A program made the translations under genes and the position numbers. 64,000 nucleotides of DNA from a bacterium (GTDB lineage Bacteria; Patescibacteriota; Minisyncoccia; UBA6257; WO2-44-18). The notes below the pieces were generated by a model. It made no database searches, was not told the DNA's origin, and saw nothing but the letters and a program-made list of their open reading frames with translations. The stretch covers positions 32,589 to 96,588 of the forward strand of contig JAUYHP010000008.1 of the NCBI GenBank assembly GCA_030689595.1, given 5' to 3'. Of this stretch, positions 52,531 to 63,018 are shown piece after piece (position 1 is the stretch's first letter; every line of letters begins with the position of its first letter).

Positions 52531-52754
52531 CTAGACGTCTTAATTTTAATTACGACTAATATAATATCGCCGGTGGGCGATTCTTATCTAGCAAAAAAGC
52601 CAGGTTCCTCCGATGACTATCGGAGGGGTTTTTACTACGTTGTCCAAATTCTATTTGGACGCATAATAATCGCCCCGCGGTGGCGGGGCACATATCGGAG
52701 CAAAACCCCTGGTGTCCCGCTTCGGCGGGACGGTTTTATGTTACAATTATAATT

Positions 52755-53147
52755 ATGGAACCAGTAAAAAGTTTTGAATTTAGCCACGAATCCCTAGAAA
52801 AGGACATGGAGCGTCTGGCTGGCGAGGTTCAAGAAAGGGCAGCAGCCGAGTCGCCAACAGCTCACAAGGAAGCTATTAAATCCACCGTAGGAGAGCAGAT
52901 AAAGAAAATGGCACCCGTCGCTCCAGACCCCAACGAGCACCAATCTTCGACCGTGCCAAATTATCTCCAAGCAGCCGACAACTCGACTAAGTTACAAGTT
53001 GAACAGCTGATAGAATTAGCTTGGCACAAGGGGTTGCCTGCGGCGATTAAGGAGGCTAAAAAGGCTGGGCCTTTATATGTGGACGCCCTACACGACGCTT
53101 TAACCGATAAACTTTACGACGAATTCAAAAGACGTAAGTTGTTATGA
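52755..53147 (+). CDS. Hypothetical soluble protein, first gene of a three-gene operon
   Basis: About 130 aa from MEPVKSF. Its stop overlaps the next start (ATGA). Confidence 0.45.
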   Translation: MEPVKSFEFSHESLEKDMERLAGEVQERAAAESPTAHKEAIKSTVGEQIKKMAPVAPDPNEHQSSTVPNYLQAADNSTKLQVEQLIELAWHKGLPAAIKEAKKAGPLYVDALHDALTDKLYDEFKRRKLL

Positions 53148-55477
53148 AAATAGCGCTAGTAGTTATTTTTGCTGTAATATTTGTGGCAATCGTAATAGCT
53201 ATTATTTTGTATGCTAAGAAATCATCGTTGCGCAATCTTTTAAAAAAATCTTTAAATCTTAAGCTGCTATCTATCAGGCTGCCTCAGCCCGTTGAGAAAG
53301 AGCAACAAAAATTTCAAGATGAAATTAATACTTCTGGTCAATTAATAAGCATTTTAGCCGGGCTTAAGCAGCCATTTACCTTTGAAGTTGCTAAACCAAA
53401 CAACAGCGAAGAAATCCATTTTTACATTGCAGTCCCACAAGATTCTGTAGAGTTTACCTCTAGGCAAATACAAGGCCTCTGGAGCGATGCTCAGATAGAC
53501 CATATAGATGATTATACGATTTTTAATACGACTGGCGCCGCCGGAGTGGCCTATCTTAAGCAAAAGAGTCACAGCGCTATTCCAATTAGAACTTTTGCCG
53601 AGGCTGAAAACGATACCTTTTTACCAATCATCAGCAACCTAACTAAAGTTGAGGGGATAGGTGAGGGGGCCGCCATCCAAATAGTTGTTAAGCCAGCGCC
53701 AGATTCGATAAAAAACAATGTTGATAAAGTTATTAATAAATTGCGCCAAGGAATGTCTCTTAAAGACGCACTAGCTGGCAAAGTCATCAAAACCAACAAA
53801 GACAAAAACGCCCCAGTCCAACCAAGGGTTGTTGATGAAGAGTCGGTTAAAATATTGAGTAGCAAGATAGCTAAGCCGATATTTTCAGTTAATGTTCGCC
53901 TGGCAACTTCAGCGTCCAGCCCAGAAAAAGCAGATGCACTATTAAATGGTTTAGCGGGTTCTTATAATCAATTTTCAGCCCCAGGCAGAAATGAATTTAA
54001 AATAGTCAGCCCCAAAGATAGCAGAGAATTAATATATCAATTCGTTTTCAGGCAACATGATAATCGCCAGAATATGATATTGGGCGCCGATGAATTGGCG
54101 AGTATTTTTCATTTACCAACCAGTGCTACCAGAATTCCTAAAATTCATTGGCTGAAATCTAAAGAAGCCGCACCGCCGCCGAATTTACCAGATGCAGGCG
54201 TAACGATAGGAAAAAGCACTTTTAGAAATGATGACAAATTGGTGAAAATCACCGACGATGATCGTCGACGACATTTATATGTTATCGGCCAAACTGGCAC
54301 TGGTAAATCTAGTCTATTAATTAATATGGCCGTTGACGACATCCGCCAAGGCAAGGGCGTCGCCATAATAGACCCTCACGGCGACTTAATCGACGCGGTA
54401 TCTGGCCTTATTCCAGCTGAAAGACAAAAAGATGTTATCGTTTTCGACCCTGGCGATATCTCTAAACCATTGGGCCTTAACATGCTTGAATATGACGTTA
54501 ATCGTCCCGAAGAAAAGACCTTTATTGTCAACGAAATGCAGAGCATTTTTAATAAGTTATTTACGGCCGAAACTATGGGGCCTATGTTCGAACAATATAT
54601 GCGCAATGCCTTGTTGCTATTGATGGAAGATATGCCACACTCTCCTTCGACGCTAACGGAAGTGCCTCGTATTTTTACTGATGCAGATTTCCGCCGAGAA
54701 AAAACTAGTCGCGCCCTCAACCCGACAGTCGTAGATTTTTGGGAAAAAGAGGCCGCGAAAGCAGGCGGCGAAGCATCTCTAGCCAACATCACCCCCTATA
54801 TAACTTCTAAATTTAACAATTTCTTGGCTAACGATTATGTGCGGCCGATTATTGGCCAAGTGCGGTCGTCGTTTAATTTCCGCAAGGTGATGGATGATGG
54901 CAAAATATTGTTGGTCAATCTTTCCAAGGGGCGCATCGGTGATATAAATGCTGGACTTTTAGGTATGATTGTCGTCGGTAAATTGTTGATGGCGGCTTTA
55001 TCGCGAGTAGATCTAGCCCAAGAACAGCGTCGCGATTTTAATTTATACATCGATGAGTTCCAAAACTTCACTACCGATTCTATCGCCACGATTTTATCAG
55101 AAGCTCGTAAGTATAAATTAAATCTTGTCATTGCTCACCAATTTATTGGTCAGCTAACTGAAAAAATTCGTGATGCTGTTTTTGGCAATGTGGGCTCGAT
55201 GGCTGTGTTTAGGGTCGGCGCTGACGACGCTGAGTTTCTAGCTAAACAATTTGATCCAGTATTTTCTAAAACCGACCTCATCAACATTGACAACTTCAAC
55301 GCCTACCTTAAATTATTGATTGCCGGTCAAACATCCAGGCCATTTAATATGATAACTATTCCACCGGAGCAGGGTGACGAAAAAATTAAAGAAGCTTTAA
55401 AAGAATATTCACGCAACACCTACGGCCGTGATAGGGGAGAGGTAGAAGCCGAAATACTTAAGAGATTAAGGGCCTAA
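53144..55477 (+). CDS. Membrane-anchored TraG/VirD4/TrwB-like (type IV coupling protein / FtsK-HerA superfamily) ATPase
   Basis: N-terminal TM helix and a roughly 400-aa unique middle region. Walker A YVIGQTGTGKSSLL is followed by IIDPHGD. The C-terminal YIDEFQNF...ARKYKLNLVIAHQFIGQL...GNVGSMAVFRVGADDAEFL follows the TraD/TraG Walker B-to-C-terminus pattern. Confidence 0.65.
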   Translation: MKIALVVIFAVIFVAIVIAIILYAKKSSLRNLLKKSLNLKLLSIRLPQPVEKEQQKFQDEINTSGQLISILAGLKQPFTFEVAKPNNSEEIHFYIAVPQDSVEFTSRQIQGLWSDAQIDHIDDYTIFNTTGAAGVAYLKQKSHSAIPIRTFAEAENDTFLPIISNLTKVEGIGEGAAIQIVVKPAPDSIKNNVDKVINKLRQGMSLKDALAGKVIKTNKDKNAPVQPRVVDEESVKILSSKIAKPIFSVNVRLATSASSPEKADALLNGLAGSYNQFSAPGRNEFKIVSPKDSRELIYQFVFRQHDNRQNMILGADELASIFHLPTSATRIPKIHWLKSKEAAPPPNLPDAGVTIGKSTFRNDDKLVKITDDDRRRHLYVIGQTGTGKSSLLINMAVDDIRQGKGVAIIDPHGDLIDAVSGLIPAERQKDVIVFDPGDISKPLGLNMLEYDVNRPEEKTFIVNEMQSIFNKLFTAETMGPMFEQYMRNALLLLMEDMPHSPSTLTEVPRIFTDADFRREKTSRALNPTVVDFWEKEAAKAGGEASLANITPYITSKFNNFLANDYVRPIIGQVRSSFNFRKVMDDGKILLVNLSKGRIGDINAGLLGMIVVGKLLMAALSRVDLAQEQRRDFNLYIDEFQNFTTDSIATILSEARKYKLNLVIAHQFIGQLTEKIRDAVFGNVGSMAVFRVGADDAEFLAKQFDPVFSKTDLINIDNFNAYLKLLIAGQTSRPFNMITIPPEQGDEKIKEALKEYSRNTYGRDRGEVEAEILKRLRA

Positions 55478-55536
55478 TATTGACGCCTTATATAAAATTT
55501 GCTAATCTGTTAGAAGCTCATTTCAAGGAGGTTATT

Positions 55537-55791
55537 ATGAGCCGAGAAAAGCTACGCAGAGCATTGTGCGGCCGTAAGATTATTTTTGTTAATGTTAATG
55601 ACGACGGGAATGATTTTATGACCTTAACCCTTGATGACGGCTCTAAAATTGTTTTCACTCATGGGGCAGATCCTGGTCAGCCAGTTTGGACCAAGATTGT
55701 TAAACGTAACCTCGATGAGCATGATGATTATGTTTGTACTGATGAGTTGTGGTCTACCAGCGGTGGCAGTGGGCGCGTAGGGATGCTTTGA
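55537..55791 (+). CDS. Small hypothetical protein, third gene of the operon
   Basis: AAGGAGG RBS before the ATG at 55537; 84 aa. Confidence 0.4.
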   Translation: MSREKLRRALCGRKIIFVNVNDDGNDFMTLTLDDGSKIVFTHGADPGQPVWTKIVKRNLDEHDDYVCTDELWSTSGGSGRVGML

Positions 55792-55835
55792 GAGGACAGC
55801 TCTGACCCGTGTTTCCGGTTCGGGATTTTAAAATA

Positions 55836-55873
55836 AAATTAATGGCGTGACTTAGGTCACGCCATTTTTATTA
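55836..55873. terminator. Bidirectional terminator
   Basis: AAAATAAAATTA-ATGGCGTGAC-TTAG-GTCACGCCAT-TTTTATTA. Confidence 0.7.
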
Positions 55874-55876
55874 AGA

Positions 55877-56659
55877 TTATTTTAAATAGCCAATTTTCTT
55901 CAGCCAATATTCATTGTCCCACTCCCACAATTTCTTGGCCGCCAAAAAAGCTTCAAAATCTTCTTTCCAATAGGGATCTTCTTTTATAGCTGTTACGCCA
56001 GTTAATGGGCCCCATTCATGTTGATCTTCTGGACAAACCTTTAGCCCACGAATTGAGGGATATGGTTTGCGAATTTTTTCTCGCCCGCCCTTAGGGCGCA
56101 AGGTTGATTTACATTTTGGACAAGTTTTAATCTGATCAACTCTCAATATCCATCTTGTTTGTGGATCAACTACCGAAGGATCTTTAGTCAGAGCATCCAT
56201 ATAAGCCGCTGTTTGCAAATTATAATCTCGATAAAAATCCATCGAAGTTTTAATATCCATAACGCCAAATTTACCGCCAATCAGAGCCATAGCATCAATC
56301 GTGCCGGCATAGCTATGATCTAGATTCATAATTCGCTTTTCAATTGATTGCGGATCAACTTGAATATTATTCCGATCAATAAACTCTATACACGAATTAA
56401 CTGCCGGCGCTATGCTTTCATCAATATCTCTCTGTTTTCCCAAAAGAATATCTTGAACGGTTTCGTGTACTAGCGTGCCTTCTTCGGCCGATTTTTTTGT
56501 TTGCGCTTCTGCCGCCGCAAAACTAGTAGCGGAAGCATAATATCTATATAAAGCCGGTTTAGATTTTACGCCAATGATCTTAGTAACACGCGGATACCAA
56601 AAACCGTTGATATCATAACCGCATTGTTCTTTAAATTGTTCGGGCGTGGAGTAGTACAT
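55877..56659 (-). CDS. PD-(D/E)xK nuclease-family protein (Cas4/RecB-like fold) with a Cys-rich C-terminus
   Basis: HETVQD..., then D-x13-MDIKT (the D...D/E-x-K arrangement: GTIDAMALIGGKFGVMDIKTS). CPKCK...C...C may be a zinc ribbon. Confidence 0.5.
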   Translation of the reverse strand: MYYSTPEQFKEQCGYDINGFWYPRVTKIIGVKSKPALYRYYASATSFAAAEAQTKKSAEEGTLVHETVQDILLGKQRDIDESIAPAVNSCIEFIDRNNIQVDPQSIEKRIMNLDHSYAGTIDAMALIGGKFGVMDIKTSMDFYRDYNLQTAAYMDALTKDPSVVDPQTRWILRVDQIKTCPKCKSTLRPKGGREKIRKPYPSIRGLKVCPEDQHEWGPLTGVTAIKEDPYWKEDFEAFLAAKKLWEWDNEYWLKKIGYLK

Positions 56660-56842
56660 TAAAAAATTATTAAGAAATTAATCTATTTAGCCATTAAGTA
56701 ATAAATAAATTGTAGTACGTAGCAGTCGTTAAGTACAGGATGTTGTTGTGCGTGATGCTAAAATTTTAGAAGACGCTAACACGGCCTTAAAGGATGTGTC
56801 TATTAAAGGAGTCGTTTATTATATACTCCGCGGACACAGATT

Positions 56843-56903
56843 AGCGCTGCTTTCACATGTGAAAGCAGCGCTGCTTGACGTATTGATGGGTTATTGTTAT
56901 CAT
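56843..56903 (+). promoter_or_regulatory. 30-bp perfect palindrome abutting a promoter-like -35/-10 pair
   Basis: AGCGCTGCTTTCACATGTGAAAGCAGCGCT (56843-56872), immediately followed by TTGACG, a 17-bp spacer, and TATCAT. Confidence 0.45.
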
Positions 56904-56947
56904 ATTCAGAAGTTCTTTGACGTTCACCTGATAAGGAGCATAGAGCG

Positions 56948-57106
56948 ATGAACAGAAAAACGCTGGACATGATTACCATTCTCGTTGCCTCTCTTGGCGT
57001 GTGTGTGGCACTTTTCATTATTGCCACCATGCCCGGCAATGAGACTGTAGGACTGTGTCTTATTGGGGGAGCCCTAACCGCGGCACTTCTCACGATACTG
57101 ATTTAG
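56948..57106 (+). CDS. Unannotated 52-aa two-TM hydrophobic peptide (toxin- or holin-like small protein)
   Basis: AGGAGC RBS and the ATG at 56948. The sequence is MNRKTLDMITILVASLGVCVALFIIATMPGNETVGLCLIGGALTAALLTILI. It falls below the 60-aa cutoff of the ORF track. Confidence 0.4.
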   Translation: MNRKTLDMITILVASLGVCVALFIIATMPGNETVGLCLIGGALTAALLTILI

Positions 57107-57436
57107 ACGCGCAACACCAGAAAAAAGTTTTAAGGCGGCTGGCCATCTTCCCGATGGCAGCTAATGTCTAGTATTTAGGTGATTTTGACGATATTCAGAA
57201 GGCCAAGCTGGTTGCCGCTAAAAAAGGCACTGGTTGTACCGGAAGCGCTATTTTTGCCGCAGGTGTATATGACCATGCGGGTAAACAGATCCATTTCTTT
57301 CGCCGTAGACCGTCTACAATTGCTAAGGATTAAGCTTGATAAATATAGCCGCCATCTTTATTAATAAAGTTGGCGGTTTTTTCTTTTTACGCATTTATCA
57401 ACAGGGTAGGGCTACCAAATATTTGCTCGATATAAT

Positions 57437-57468
57437 AAAGTGAGTGTAAGGGATATTATACTCACTTT
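57437..57468. other. 12-6-12 inverted repeat, candidate tyrosine-recombinase core site
   Basis: AAGTGAGTGTAA-GGGATA-TTATACTCACTT, with 11 of 12 positions matching between arms, 75 bp upstream of the recombinase gene. Confidence 0.4.
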
Positions 57469-57542
57469 GGTATATGTGAGAAAATAATGGTAAAATTGGT
57501 AAAAAGCACTCCCCTAACACTATTTTGTAGAAATTATCAATT

Positions 57543-58514
57543 ATGACAAAAGCTGACAGCGATAATAAAAAAGTTACAATTCTTCCTCATCTAGATGACT
57601 TTTTATTACACCTACAGAGTAATAACTATTCACCCAAAACCGTATATAATTACGAACGCGACCTAATAGTATTTGATGGCTTCCTACAGGATGACCTAGG
57701 CCTAAAAGACTTCCAAGATGCCTCAAAACAGGCTCTAGAACGGTATAAGGCGTATCTGATGTCTACTGACCGTAAAACAGCCCGTAAAACGCAAAATAAG
57801 GCCAATTTAGGGGCCTATTCACGCAACCGACACCTATCAGCCCTCAGGAGCTATCTTAAGTACTTAATTGACGGGGACTATAAGACCCCGATCGTCCCAG
57901 AGAACATAAAGCTAATCAAAACTGACAAAAAGATAGCCAAAGTGGCCGAGCTGCAAGACTTAATCAAATTGATTGAATCCCCCACCAAATTTGAAAAAAA
58001 TCCAATCATAGCTAAGCGCAATCGCGCCATGTTAGAAGTTTTATTTGCTACCGGTTTACGTATTTCCGAATTAGTTAATCTCAAAAAAAATCAGATCGAT
58101 AGGGAAGGCAAGATTTTTGTTTTGGGCAAAGGCAAAAAAGAAAGATTTGTTTATTTGACCCCTAGAGCCATAAAATATTTAAAAATATATTTAACCGAAC
58201 GCAACGATGACTCCCCTCACCTATTCATTTCTTATCGCGGCAAAAGAGCGCCAACGCAAGATCATCATGTGTCGCCAAATTATTTACAAGAAAAAATAAA
58301 AAAATACCGAGAGATTCTTGGCATCAATGTGCCAACTAGCGCCCACTCACTCCGCCACGGCTTTGCCACCTATCTGGCCGAAAAAGGCGCCAGCCCTGCC
58401 GCCATTCAAATACTTTTGGGTCACGAGTCTTTAGACACTACCACTCGCTATGTCCACGCCTCGCATCGCTTCGCCAAAAAAACTCACCAGAAATTTCATC
58501 CACTGAAAGATTAA
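57543..58514 (+). CDS. Tyrosine site-specific recombinase (XerC/XerD/integrase family)
   Basis: C-terminal HSLRHGFAT...LLGHESLDTTTRYVH (R-H-R-Y catalytic set), and N-terminal SAM-like core-binding domain. Confidence 0.85.
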   Translation: MTKADSDNKKVTILPHLDDFLLHLQSNNYSPKTVYNYERDLIVFDGFLQDDLGLKDFQDASKQALERYKAYLMSTDRKTARKTQNKANLGAYSRNRHLSALRSYLKYLIDGDYKTPIVPENIKLIKTDKKIAKVAELQDLIKLIESPTKFEKNPIIAKRNRAMLEVLFATGLRISELVNLKKNQIDREGKIFVLGKGKKERFVYLTPRAIKYLKIYLTERNDDSPHLFISYRGKRAPTQDHHVSPNYLQEKIKKYREILGINVPTSAHSLRHGFATYLAEKGASPAAIQILLGHESLDTTTRYVHASHRFAKKTHQKFHPLKD

Positions 58515-58550: not shown

Positions 58551-58580
58551 AAAAAAAAACCCGAACCACTTGGTTCGGGG
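58551..58580 (-). terminator. Rho-independent terminator for the minus-strand gdh-ychF-adk-map transcript
   Basis: On the minus strand: CCCGAACCA-AG-TGGTTCGGG then TTTTTTTTT. Confidence 0.65.
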
Positions 58581-58690
58581 TTGATGCTACTTGGCCGAGG
58601 TTGTCATCAGAAACAAGCTCAACCAGTGCCGTTTCTGGTGCCCCTTCTGGAGCACGACGACACCTGCCCACTGCTCCACCGCCTTTCCTG

Positions 58691-58795
58691 TCTGCCAGGC
58701 AAGGCCGAGGAACTGAACGACATCCCCGCCAGCTTTCTGCCAGGCAAGGCCGAGGCCCTGCACGGCATCCGCACTAGCACTCTGCCAGGCCATGA
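58691..58795. repeat. GC-rich 45-bp tandem repeat (about 2.3 copies)
   Basis: CTGCCAGGCAAGGCCGAGG recurs at 58691 and 58736, and a partial copy at 58781. Local GC is about 60%, against a roughly 42% background. Confidence 0.6.
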
Positions 58796-58901
58796 CTACC
58801 TCCAATACAACGGTGGACAGTGAAGTGATTAAACTTTGTTTAGGTACTGGGGCTAGTATATCATAAATATGTGAGGTTTGTCAAGGGGGACAAGTATTAA
58901 C

Positions 58902-60409: not shown

Positions 60410-61417
60410 TTATCCGTGTCGGATCTCCATCACGTCCCCATCCTCAGCGACATATTCTTTGCCTTCGATTCTTAAAAAGCCCTTTTGGCGCGCTTGTGCC
60501 CAAGAACCGACTTCTAATAATTTTTGCCAATTTACAACCTCGGCTCGGATAAACTTCTTTTCAAAATCAGTATGGATAACTCCGGCGGCTTGCGGCGCTT
60601 TACTCCCCTGTCTGATTGTCCAGGCCCTGGTCTCATCTTTGCCAGTAGTGAAGAAGCTTATGAGCCCCAAGATCTCATACGACTTTTTGATTAGGGCCGA
60701 AAGATCTACGGATTGTGATAGGTCAGCAACTATATAATCGGCTCCAGAAGTTTTAATTTTTTCTATTAATTCTGGTGGCACATCGCCTTCTTGGCCATTT
60801 AATAAATACAGCTGTTTTTTAGTGGTCAAAAGGCTAAGACCCAACATTCTCACATTCTCGAGAATGTGAGAATGTTGCCACAAAGGTTCGCCCTTTTCTA
60901 AAAGCGACCTGGTCTCCCGTATGGTCTCTAAATCTTTCTTGGCTTGTTTATCGCCCGTCTTGGCCTCGCCCTCAACTCGCTTTAAAACTTTTTCAACGGT
61001 ATCCAAGTCTTTAAGAGCCAGCTCGGTATTGATTATTTCCATGTCCCTAATTGGATCAACTGAATTTTCTACATGAATAATCTCGCCGCTTTGAAAACAG
61101 CGCAAGACCATGATTATGGCATCAACCTCTCTAATGTGTGATAAAAACTGGTTGCCCAAACCTTCGCCTTTATTGGCCCCCCTAACTAAACCCGCAATGT
61201 CATAGAATTCTACAACCGCAGGGATTTTTTTGGCCGATTGGCTAAGCTCTGCCAATTTATCCACTCGCTCATCAGGCACAGGCACTATGCCGATATTGGG
61301 GTCAATGGTGGCAAATGGATAATTGGCAATATTAATCTCCAAATCTGTTATAGCCTTAAAAAGCGTCGATTTCCCGACGTTTGGCAGCCCGACTATACCG
61401 ATTGAAATATTAGCCAT
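60410..61417 (-). CDS. ychF: Ribosome-binding ATPase YchF, carrying an in-frame 36-bp palindromic insert
   Basis: [15 protein letters not shown]1 motif and a TGS-like C-terminus. Codons [13 protein letters not shown] are encoded exactly by the palindrome at 60843-60878. Confidence 0.85.
60843..60878. repeat. 36-bp perfect palindrome, intragenic copy
   Basis: CAACATTCTCACATTCTCGAGAATGTGAGAATGTTG. Confidence 0.9.
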
Positions 61418-62970: not shown

Positions 62971-63018
62971 CCCACACAACATTCTCACATTCTCGAGAAT
63001 GTGAGAATGTTGTGTGGG
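62971..63018. repeat. 48-bp perfect palindrome (the 36-bp element extended by 6 bp on each side), preceded by a GGGGGT...ACCCCC hairpin
   Basis: CCCACACAACATTCTCACATTCTCGAGAATGTGAGAATGTTGTGTGGG, in the gdh upstream region. Confidence 0.9.

Follow-up and report, generated by a model that had tools for sequence, protein, structure and literature searches.

A probable chromosomal single-recombinase Xer/dif module with its own 30-bp site in a Patescibacteria bacterium

The recombinase gene and its adjoining 30-bp site

We analyzed a stretch of 64,000 nucleotides from a bacterium of the candidate phyla radiation (CPR; Patescibacteria), located on contig JAUYHP010000008.1 of assembly GCA_030689595.1 (positions 32,589 to 96,588) and hereafter called the window. 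The locus of interest carries a gene, xer (57543-58514, + strand), which encodes an Xer-type tyrosine recombinase of 323 amino acids (aa), and, upstream of it, a 30-bp dif-like recombination site (57438-57467, with the + strand denoting the polarity of its asymmetric core). The gene was assigned from Pfam, NCBIfam, solved structures and an alignment, and the site from its sequence and its conservation. We interpret the pair as a chromosomal single-recombinase Xer/dif module, a reading to which we give a probability of roughly 0.8. By analogy with characterized systems, the most likely task of Xer is the housekeeping one of separating chromosome dimers, and it is encoded next to its own 30-bp target.

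Xer is a two-domain recombinase, in which Pfam recognizes the Phage_integrase domain (9e-34) and an N-terminal SAM-like core-binding domain (2.8e-11). In an alignment of 30 orthologous sequences, residues R173, K196/K199, H268, R271, H294 and Y303 are invariant, which gives the R-K-H-R-H-Y catalytic set and confirms the full R-H-R-Y set that had been read from the DNA in the original prediction. The best NCBIfam models are those of XerC, XerD and the archaeal XerA. The nearest solved structures are E. coli XerD (1a0p), a XerD-FtsK fusion (5dcf) and Pyrococcus XerA (4a8e), whereas the XerH structure (5jjv) is a far weaker match (E = 2e-13, versus 7.7e-27 for XerD). The stretch of Xer that matches the FtsK-contact region of XerD is nearer to the lysine-rich stretch of XerA than to that of XerD, a likeness that hints weakly at independence from FtsK.

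Orthologues with 62-87% identity occur in thousands of Patescibacteria assemblies, among them Parcubacteria, Uhrbacteria, Kerfeldbacteria, Falkowbacteria, Woesebacteria and others, and conservation of this kind is typical of a housekeeping gene. The closest relatives in phages and plasmids are only 30-34% identical, those on plasmids being annotated as XerC or XerD, and the identity of Xer to XerC and XerD is only ~31-34%.

The site reads AAGTGAGTGTAA-GGGATA-TTATACTCACTT. It is composed of a variable left arm, AAGTGAGTGTAA (57438-57449), a 6-bp central region, GGGATA (57450-57455), and a conserved right arm, TTATACTCACTT (57456-57467). Its geometry is 12-6-12, with an 11-6-11 core whose inner arms are TAA and TTAT, and 11 of the 12 arm positions are complementary, the single mismatch being a G.T pair. 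As the original prediction had stated, the repeat ends exactly 75 bp before the ATG of xer (57543). The window site therefore has the imperfect inverted arms of ~11 bp around a centre of 6-8 bp that characterize dif, and its 28-bp core is like E. coli dif at 17 of 28 positions, by our own count against what we take to be the dif sequence.

Inverted repeats of comparable strength are common across the window (38 raw hits at ~15-20 distinct loci, versus ~1.6 by chance), and many of them resemble GC-rich terminator stems. We therefore dropped the inverted repeat as stand-alone evidence. Judged by sequence comparison, the site is beyond chance through its conservation and not through the strength of the repeat, because the same 30-mer is conserved beside the orthologous gene, because it forms an island of identity within otherwise unalignable intergenic DNA when the window is compared with its closest relative (locus L001), and because the palindrome has sharp ends. 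Across the alignment of sites, arm complementarity extends precisely to positions 1 and 30 and no farther, in support of a 12-6-12 structure with these boundaries.

Linkage to the gene and terminus-like position across Patescibacteria

The same site accompanies the gene in other species. In a sample of 80 Patescibacteria loci from different species, found through the Xer protein, the 30-bp site was present in 77-78, with 0-7 mismatches and usually no more than 150 bp upstream of xer. The exceptions are L017, which is cut by a contig end, L076, which has a diverged copy, and L031, which has a degenerate copy at most. The consensus of these genome loci is AACTGAGTGTAA-GGGATA-TTATACTCAGTT, with a spacer of the form G[GA]G[AT]TA. 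Positions 18-24 in the right arm (ATTATAC) are invariant, while the left arm varies (GTGTAA, GTATTA, GCGTTT). Sites of the dif type usually combine one conserved arm with one looser arm.

Metagenome contigs were then scanned by DNA pattern alone. This site-first scan returned 120 stretches with one copy apiece; the pattern fixes positions 5-27, so that invariance there is partly by construction, while the outer positions were free. In every stretch with enough flank (107/107), xer lies downstream, with the site on its 5' side at a median gap of 30 bp, and in the remaining 13 of the 120 the fetched stretch stops too early or an additional gene occupies the space from the site to its end. Among the 120 matches, the site was never found away from xer. 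The copy number is one in the 64-kb window and one in each of ~200 fetched loci. Synteny beyond the site-xer pair is restricted to close relatives, and no other neighbouring gene is conserved across lineages. This is the XerS/difSL type of arrangement, in which the site lies directly upstream of the gene and the linkage is kept while the neighbours vary. No conserved partner gene, such as a translocase, was found across lineages, a VirD4-like neighbour being present only in close relatives.

One isolate assembly, GFS_3428, has two site-xer modules (L034 and L046), which lie on different contigs and have slightly differing sites. This may reflect a mixed bin or two replicons.

Several features point to a single recombinase. 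The arms are near-identical (11/12), and positions 3/28 and 1/30 covary, which fits one protein reading both arms. No second recombinase was found in the window. On the other side, the gene that some lineages have between the site and xer encodes a degenerate paralogue of Xer. The covarying outer positions could also be read as selection for pairing within a nucleic-acid hairpin (a terminator, a regulatory RNA or a cruciform) rather than for protein binding, and the repeat does form a stable stem-loop when folded as single-stranded DNA (-11 kcal/mol, z = -7.6). We hold this to be highly improbable, since changes in the inner stem are uncompensated, the left arm varying against an invariant right arm, and since position 9/22 is complementary in only 21% of the sites. 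Moreover, no T-tract follows the stem, its strand relative to the neighbouring genes differs among clades, and Rfam gave no match around the site, only sub-threshold ones driven by terminator stems; the RNA families of the window amount to one tRNA.

The position of the module was assessed from gene orientation and GC skew. In a crude count based on open reading frames (ORFs) in the genome loci, ORFs to the left of the site comprise 136.5 kb on the + strand versus 17.5 kb on the - strand, and ORFs to the right of xer comprise 55.5 kb versus 129 kb. In four further loci, the called genes within 10 kb on each side converge cleanly on the module, and the neighbours there are housekeeping genes (among them tRNA synthetases, murG, ftsW, scpAB and pgi). 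The xer gene itself always runs outward from the site, opposite to the genes around it. GC skew is positive in the left flank of 54 of 59 loci and lower in the right flank (Wilcoxon p = 2.4e-10), and the pattern of a negative left and a positive right flank occurs in 0 of 59. In the window, the cumulative G-C curve rises, reaches a plateau at ~52-57.5 kb and then drops. On the Patescibacteria chromosome CP181398.1, which is complete, the module is found at ~0.49-0.50 Mb of 1.31 Mb.

Genes that converge on one conserved recombination site are the picture expected of a replication terminus with dif, and the position of the module looks like such a terminus. The Xer/dif-like reading offered by the original prediction is thus supported by the Xer-like protein, the dif geometry, the uniqueness of the site in the window and the switch in orientation and skew.

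Some synteny around the module was seen within a sub-clade. L202, L203 and L204 have gltX and a gene for an M23 peptidase to the left of the site, and L202 and L203 also have murG and ftsW to the left and murI to the right in common, which amounts to partial synteny of the terminus region.

Possible promoter overlap and gene neighbourhood of the module

Read on the other strand, the invariant arm is GAGTATAAT, which holds a perfect -10 hexamer, TATAAT. In the window this hexamer is part of a promoter-like match on the - strand (57455-57482), identified by its consensus and directed away from xer. A weaker match on the + strand, TTGGTA-18 nt-TAAAAT with TG (57467-57496), begins at the last base of the right arm and is directed toward xer. 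Based on the consensus match only, it is a candidate xer promoter, which could be occluded by Xer sitting on the site. Promoter-like matches in this region are no more numerous than in shuffles.

Across genomes, TATAAT is directed at xer in about two-thirds of cases, and the xer start codon is often no more than 30 bp away. In a count that took in the window and loci L001-L204, the site had '-' polarity relative to xer in ~108 and '+' in ~56, so the window has the minority polarity. Polarity follows clades, with ~7 changes over the 164 tips of the Xer tree, and the window, L001 and L145 form a '+' group beside '-' relatives (L009, L101) with an identical site. Given this TATAAT in the invariant arm and the location of the site at the 5' end of the xer unit, binding of Xer to dif probably restrains the transcription of xer as well.

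It could be argued that the 30-bp repeat is mainly an operator or promoter for xer autoregulation and that the true dif lies elsewhere. The hexamer within the invariant arm and the constant location of the site at the 5' end of the transcription unit would suit such a role, as would the placement of extra genes, which, when present, fall between the site and xer, 4-37 bp after the site. However, a separate dif for the same protein should share the sequence, and 0 of the 120 site-first matches lie away from xer. The polarity is reversed in about one-third of the genomes, including the window, so that TATAAT is directed away from xer, and the geometry, in which an 11-bp arm with TTAT at its inner end adjoins a 6-bp centre, is that of a recombination core site. 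The two roles are also compatible, a dual role having been proposed for difSL (PMC1914069). We thus consider it unlikely that regulation is the main function of the repeat, and we retain dif as its probable identity.

An extra gene between the site and xer was present in 28 loci; it lies on the + strand, as xer does, in all but 2 of the 28, and it typically starts 4-37 bp after the site. One type of gene found there encodes a protein of 445-469 aa (L056, ~1632-2984, and L024, L055, L071, L077, L126, L143, L153, L155, L156, L180, L190, L200, L081, L148, L181 and L031). This protein has an Xer-like N-terminal domain and only the start of a catalytic domain, with TGLK in place of TGLR and with no LLGH...Y seen by eye, followed by an unassigned C-terminal domain of ~170 aa with a GRADLG...YVEI motif. 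From its sequence, it may be a non-catalytic partner of Xer. Another type encodes an HNH endonuclease (~155-168 aa) and starts 14-37 bp after the site (L009, ~2492-2980, and L008, L044, L065, L101, L104, L171 and L195).

A broader model, which we put forward only tentatively and to which we give a small chance, is that dif also acts as a promoter/operator that sets the level of Xer, that the system works without FtsK as archaeal XerA does, and that in some lineages it includes a second component, namely the apparently non-catalytic Xer paralogue with its extra C-terminal domain. If true, this would be a two-part Xer machine not seen before.

To the left of the site, between secY and the site, lie the genes for a VirD4/TraD-like ATPase of 777 aa (53144-55477) and a PD-(D/E)XK-like protein (55877-56659, - strand). 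They belong to a block (52680-56659) that also holds two small ORFs of unassigned function. Elsewhere the window has the genes of an ordinary chromosome, including glycogen genes and those for DnaB, CysRS, BipA, EF-Tu and SecY; the run of short ORFs that ends in SecY is a putative ribosomal-protein cluster.

This neighbourhood had led the original prediction to propose that the recombinase might be the integrase of the inserted block. In a related scenario, the block would have integrated at dif in the manner of the gonococcal genetic island, and the repeat would be an attachment site. A VirD4/TraD-like ATPase and a PD-(D/E)XK nuclease directly left of the site are suggestive in this respect, the block breaks the usual secY-adk-map order, and dif-integrated elements with type IV secretion genes are known (PMC5357621). 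An element should nevertheless leave a second copy of the site, and we found neither a copy, which would be attL/attR or an inversion partner, nor a half-site or an arm-plus-spacer remnant in the 64 kb. With up to 3 mismatches allowed, the full site occurs once in the window, with only chance-level matches at up to 9, and searches with single arms and with an arm plus spacer (up to 4 mismatches) likewise gave only chance-level matches. The degenerate site pattern had no match in 2.9 million viral contigs.

The block itself also looks native. Its GC content is the same as that of its surroundings, and the order secY / orf / VirD4-like / PD-(D/E)XK / site / xer / map / adk is common to two related species, represented by L001 (Xer identity 87%) and L145 (79%), the latter with ychF in addition. 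VirD4-like genes are common on the chromosomes of Patescibacteria, where they mostly lie apart from other secretion genes (preprint 10.1101/2025.01.22.634366), and no other type IV secretion genes were found among the scanned neighbours of the VirD4-like gene. Different lineages have unrelated housekeeping genes on either side of the module. An integrated element is therefore a very unlikely explanation of the locus.

The original prediction had further proposed the recombinase as a mediator of an adk-map inversion, that is, as a DNA invertase that flipped, or still flips, adk-map relative to secY. Indeed, adk and map are on the opposite strand from secY with the recombinase at the junction, and in the Xer tree the nearest neighbours of this clade have the reverse site polarity relative to xer. 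Yet inversion requires two inverted sites and the window has one, the arrangement is fixed in three species, and the models of invertase families fit the protein very poorly (NF007371, 33 bits versus a cut-off of 222). The converging orientation is the look of a terminus and is also seen around the module in unrelated lineages. We give this explanation next to no credence. Since the layout is common to two related species, the split between secY and adk-map is old and fixed and has no visible tie to the recombinase. With a site unique in the window, a terminus-like position and a layout fixed in relatives, the mobile and inversion parts of the original prediction have essentially fallen away, and its Xer/dif part stands.

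Among the families tried for Xer, three were rejected on their own terms. An integron integrase with attI scored 74 bits against a cut-off of 265, and the flanking housekeeping genes point toward the site. For a phage or integrative-element integrase, there was no second or partial site, no viral match to the site and no relative above 34% identity. For a tyrosine DNA invertase, the 64 kb held a single site and the models gave 31-33 bits against cut-offs of ~221.

Other features of the window were recorded around the module. The ~780 bp to the left of the site (56660-57437) have no long ORF; within them are a palindrome with perfect 15+15 arms (56843-56872) and, nearer the site, a stem like that of a terminator (57349-57376). 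In the corresponding place, L001 (2180-2656) and L145 (8172-8669) have a gene for a membrane-anchored protein of 158-165 aa, of which tblastn found no trace in the window; this gene has thus been replaced or lost there. On the other side, between the stop codons of xer and map, lies a GC-rich stretch (58560-58900), in which a 45-nt unit is repeated in tandem (2.2 copies, 58691-58790) and a terminator is present on the minus strand (58579-58560). This stretch is not in L001 and belongs to no Rfam family, and L145 has other ORFs there.

Farther to the right, a perfect 36-bp palindrome, CAACATTCTCACATTCTCGAGAATGTGAGAATGTTG, occurs in two identical copies (60842-60877 and 62977-63012). The first lies in frame within ychF and encodes 12 residues of a variable stretch that aligns gap-free to solved YchF structures. 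The second lies upstream of gdh, within a perfect 48-bp palindrome (62971-63018). The 36-bp palindrome is absent from the 200 fetched loci.

Proposed mechanism and relation to known Xer systems

At this locus, an Xer-type enzyme with all its catalytic residues is linked to a dif-shaped site on which the surrounding genes converge. Several points weigh against reading the pair as a chromosomal single-recombinase Xer/dif module. First, Xer scores under the curated cut-off of every named Xer family (XerC, 192.8 bits versus 335; XerD, 181.5 versus 330; XerA, 176.1 versus 220; XerS, 95.7 versus 267), the XerA model being the nearest to its own cut-off (176 of 220 bits). Second, in L001 another gene for a small tyrosine recombinase lies a few kb or less from xer, which weakens the case for a strictly single recombinase in the whole genome. 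Third, GC skew is confounded with gene strand, it is weak or inconsistent in some loci, and the cumulative maximum falls at the site in only 1 of 4 long (21-kb) loci. Fourth, the presumed single copy per chromosome and its presumed location opposite the origin are deduced from loci and not from whole chromosomes. Finally, the polarity of the site varies with clade, which is harmless for dif but weakens the promoter part of the model for the window.

The second recombinase of L001 (5677-6489, - strand) has 270 aa, is 25% identical to Xer and lies at the position that ychF has in the window.

Because all curated cut-offs were missed, we classify Xer as an Xer-type recombinase that acts like XerS/difSL and place it outside XerS, XerH, XerA, XerC and XerD. 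The module is built like XerS/difSL, yet it has a classical short dif and an XerC/D/A-like protein. We regard it as a known kind of system in a lineage-specific case with a newly defined site, and the literature that we searched, which is incomplete, held no description of a Patescibacteria/CPR Xer-dif system or of this site sequence.

By analogy with XerCD, XerS, XerH and XerA, our model suggests that each of the two near-identical arms would be bound by one of two Xer monomers. Once sister chromosomes have been joined into a dimer by homologous recombination, the two copies of dif would pair in a tetramer of Xer. Two sequential pairs of strand exchanges across GGGATA would follow, via a Holliday junction, and the one crossover added in this way would yield two monomers before division. 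We hypothesize that the asymmetry of the arms would set the order of these steps. No FtsK was found among the 20 ORFs of the window scanned with Pfam, a scan that covered neither the other ORFs of the window nor the rest of the genome.

If confirmed, the 30-bp site would be a marker of the replication terminus for a huge and mostly uncultured radiation. It would help to close or check metagenome-assembled genomes, whose GC skew is often weak, and it would serve as a fixed anchor for finding elements that integrate at dif or exploit Xer. The module would add a further lineage-specific single-recombinase Xer system to XerS, XerH and XerA, and its combination of a classical-looking dif with a site-beside-gene layout is relevant to the origin of Xer modules and to the replacement of one by another. 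As a compact enzyme with a defined 30-bp site, the recombinase could also serve as an experimental tool.

In architecture, the closest known system is XerS/difSL of streptococci and lactococci (Le Bourgeois et al. 2007), which forms one module at the terminus with the site directly upstream of the gene (PMC1914069, PMC5357621). Both link a recombinase, single in XerS/difSL and probably so here, to a site that directly precedes its gene, in both the site-gene pair is the sole conserved element in a variable terminus or terminus-like region, and in both the site is suspected to overlap the promoter of the gene, a possibility raised for difSL (PMC1914069). They differ in the protein, XerS having 356 aa versus 323 aa here and its model scoring 95.7 bits against a cut-off of 267. 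They also differ in the site, since difSL has 31 bp with an 11-bp centre, in contrast to the 6-bp centre and TTAT inner arm found here, and the sequences are unrelated.

XerH/difH of Helicobacter and Campylobacter also pairs a single recombinase with a site near its gene (PMC3325230, PMC5241119, PMC5357621), and its site is likewise near-palindromic, with a small asymmetry of the arms that orders events. XerH is larger, however (354-362 aa), its structure (5jjv) is a weaker match to our protein and the site sequences differ. The archaeal XerA/dif system (Cortez et al. 2010, PMC2958812) resembles the module in having a single recombinase of ~280-320 aa and a 28-bp, 11-6-11 dif with almost perfectly symmetric arms. 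That dif is partly like the bacterial one, with 14-18 of 28 positions like the bacterial consensus (PMC2958812). Unlike here, the archaeal dif does not lie beside xerA (PMC2958812); moreover, the host of our module is bacterial and the score of its protein is below the XerA cut-off.

A recombinase phylogeny has described a 'Cand' subgroup related to Xer and confined to candidate phyla, and has proposed simple, class-specific recombinases as possible substitutes for Xer (Smyshlyaev et al. 2021, PMC8138268). The likeness to our Xer is one of description and not of sequence placement, and the passage that introduces the subgroup names neither a recombination site nor a linkage between site and gene (PMC8138268).

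With XerC/XerD-dif, the module shares the protein superfamily, the best NCBIfam and PDB matches, the 11-6-11 geometry and, to judge from its terminus-like position, probably the location of the site. Classical XerC and XerD are two paralogues, which are encoded far from dif and bind two clearly different arms. Here, in contrast, a single gene accompanies the site, whose arms match at 11 of 12 positions. Overall, sequence comparison suggests that the protein and the geometry of its site are nearer to XerC/D and XerA than to XerS or XerH.

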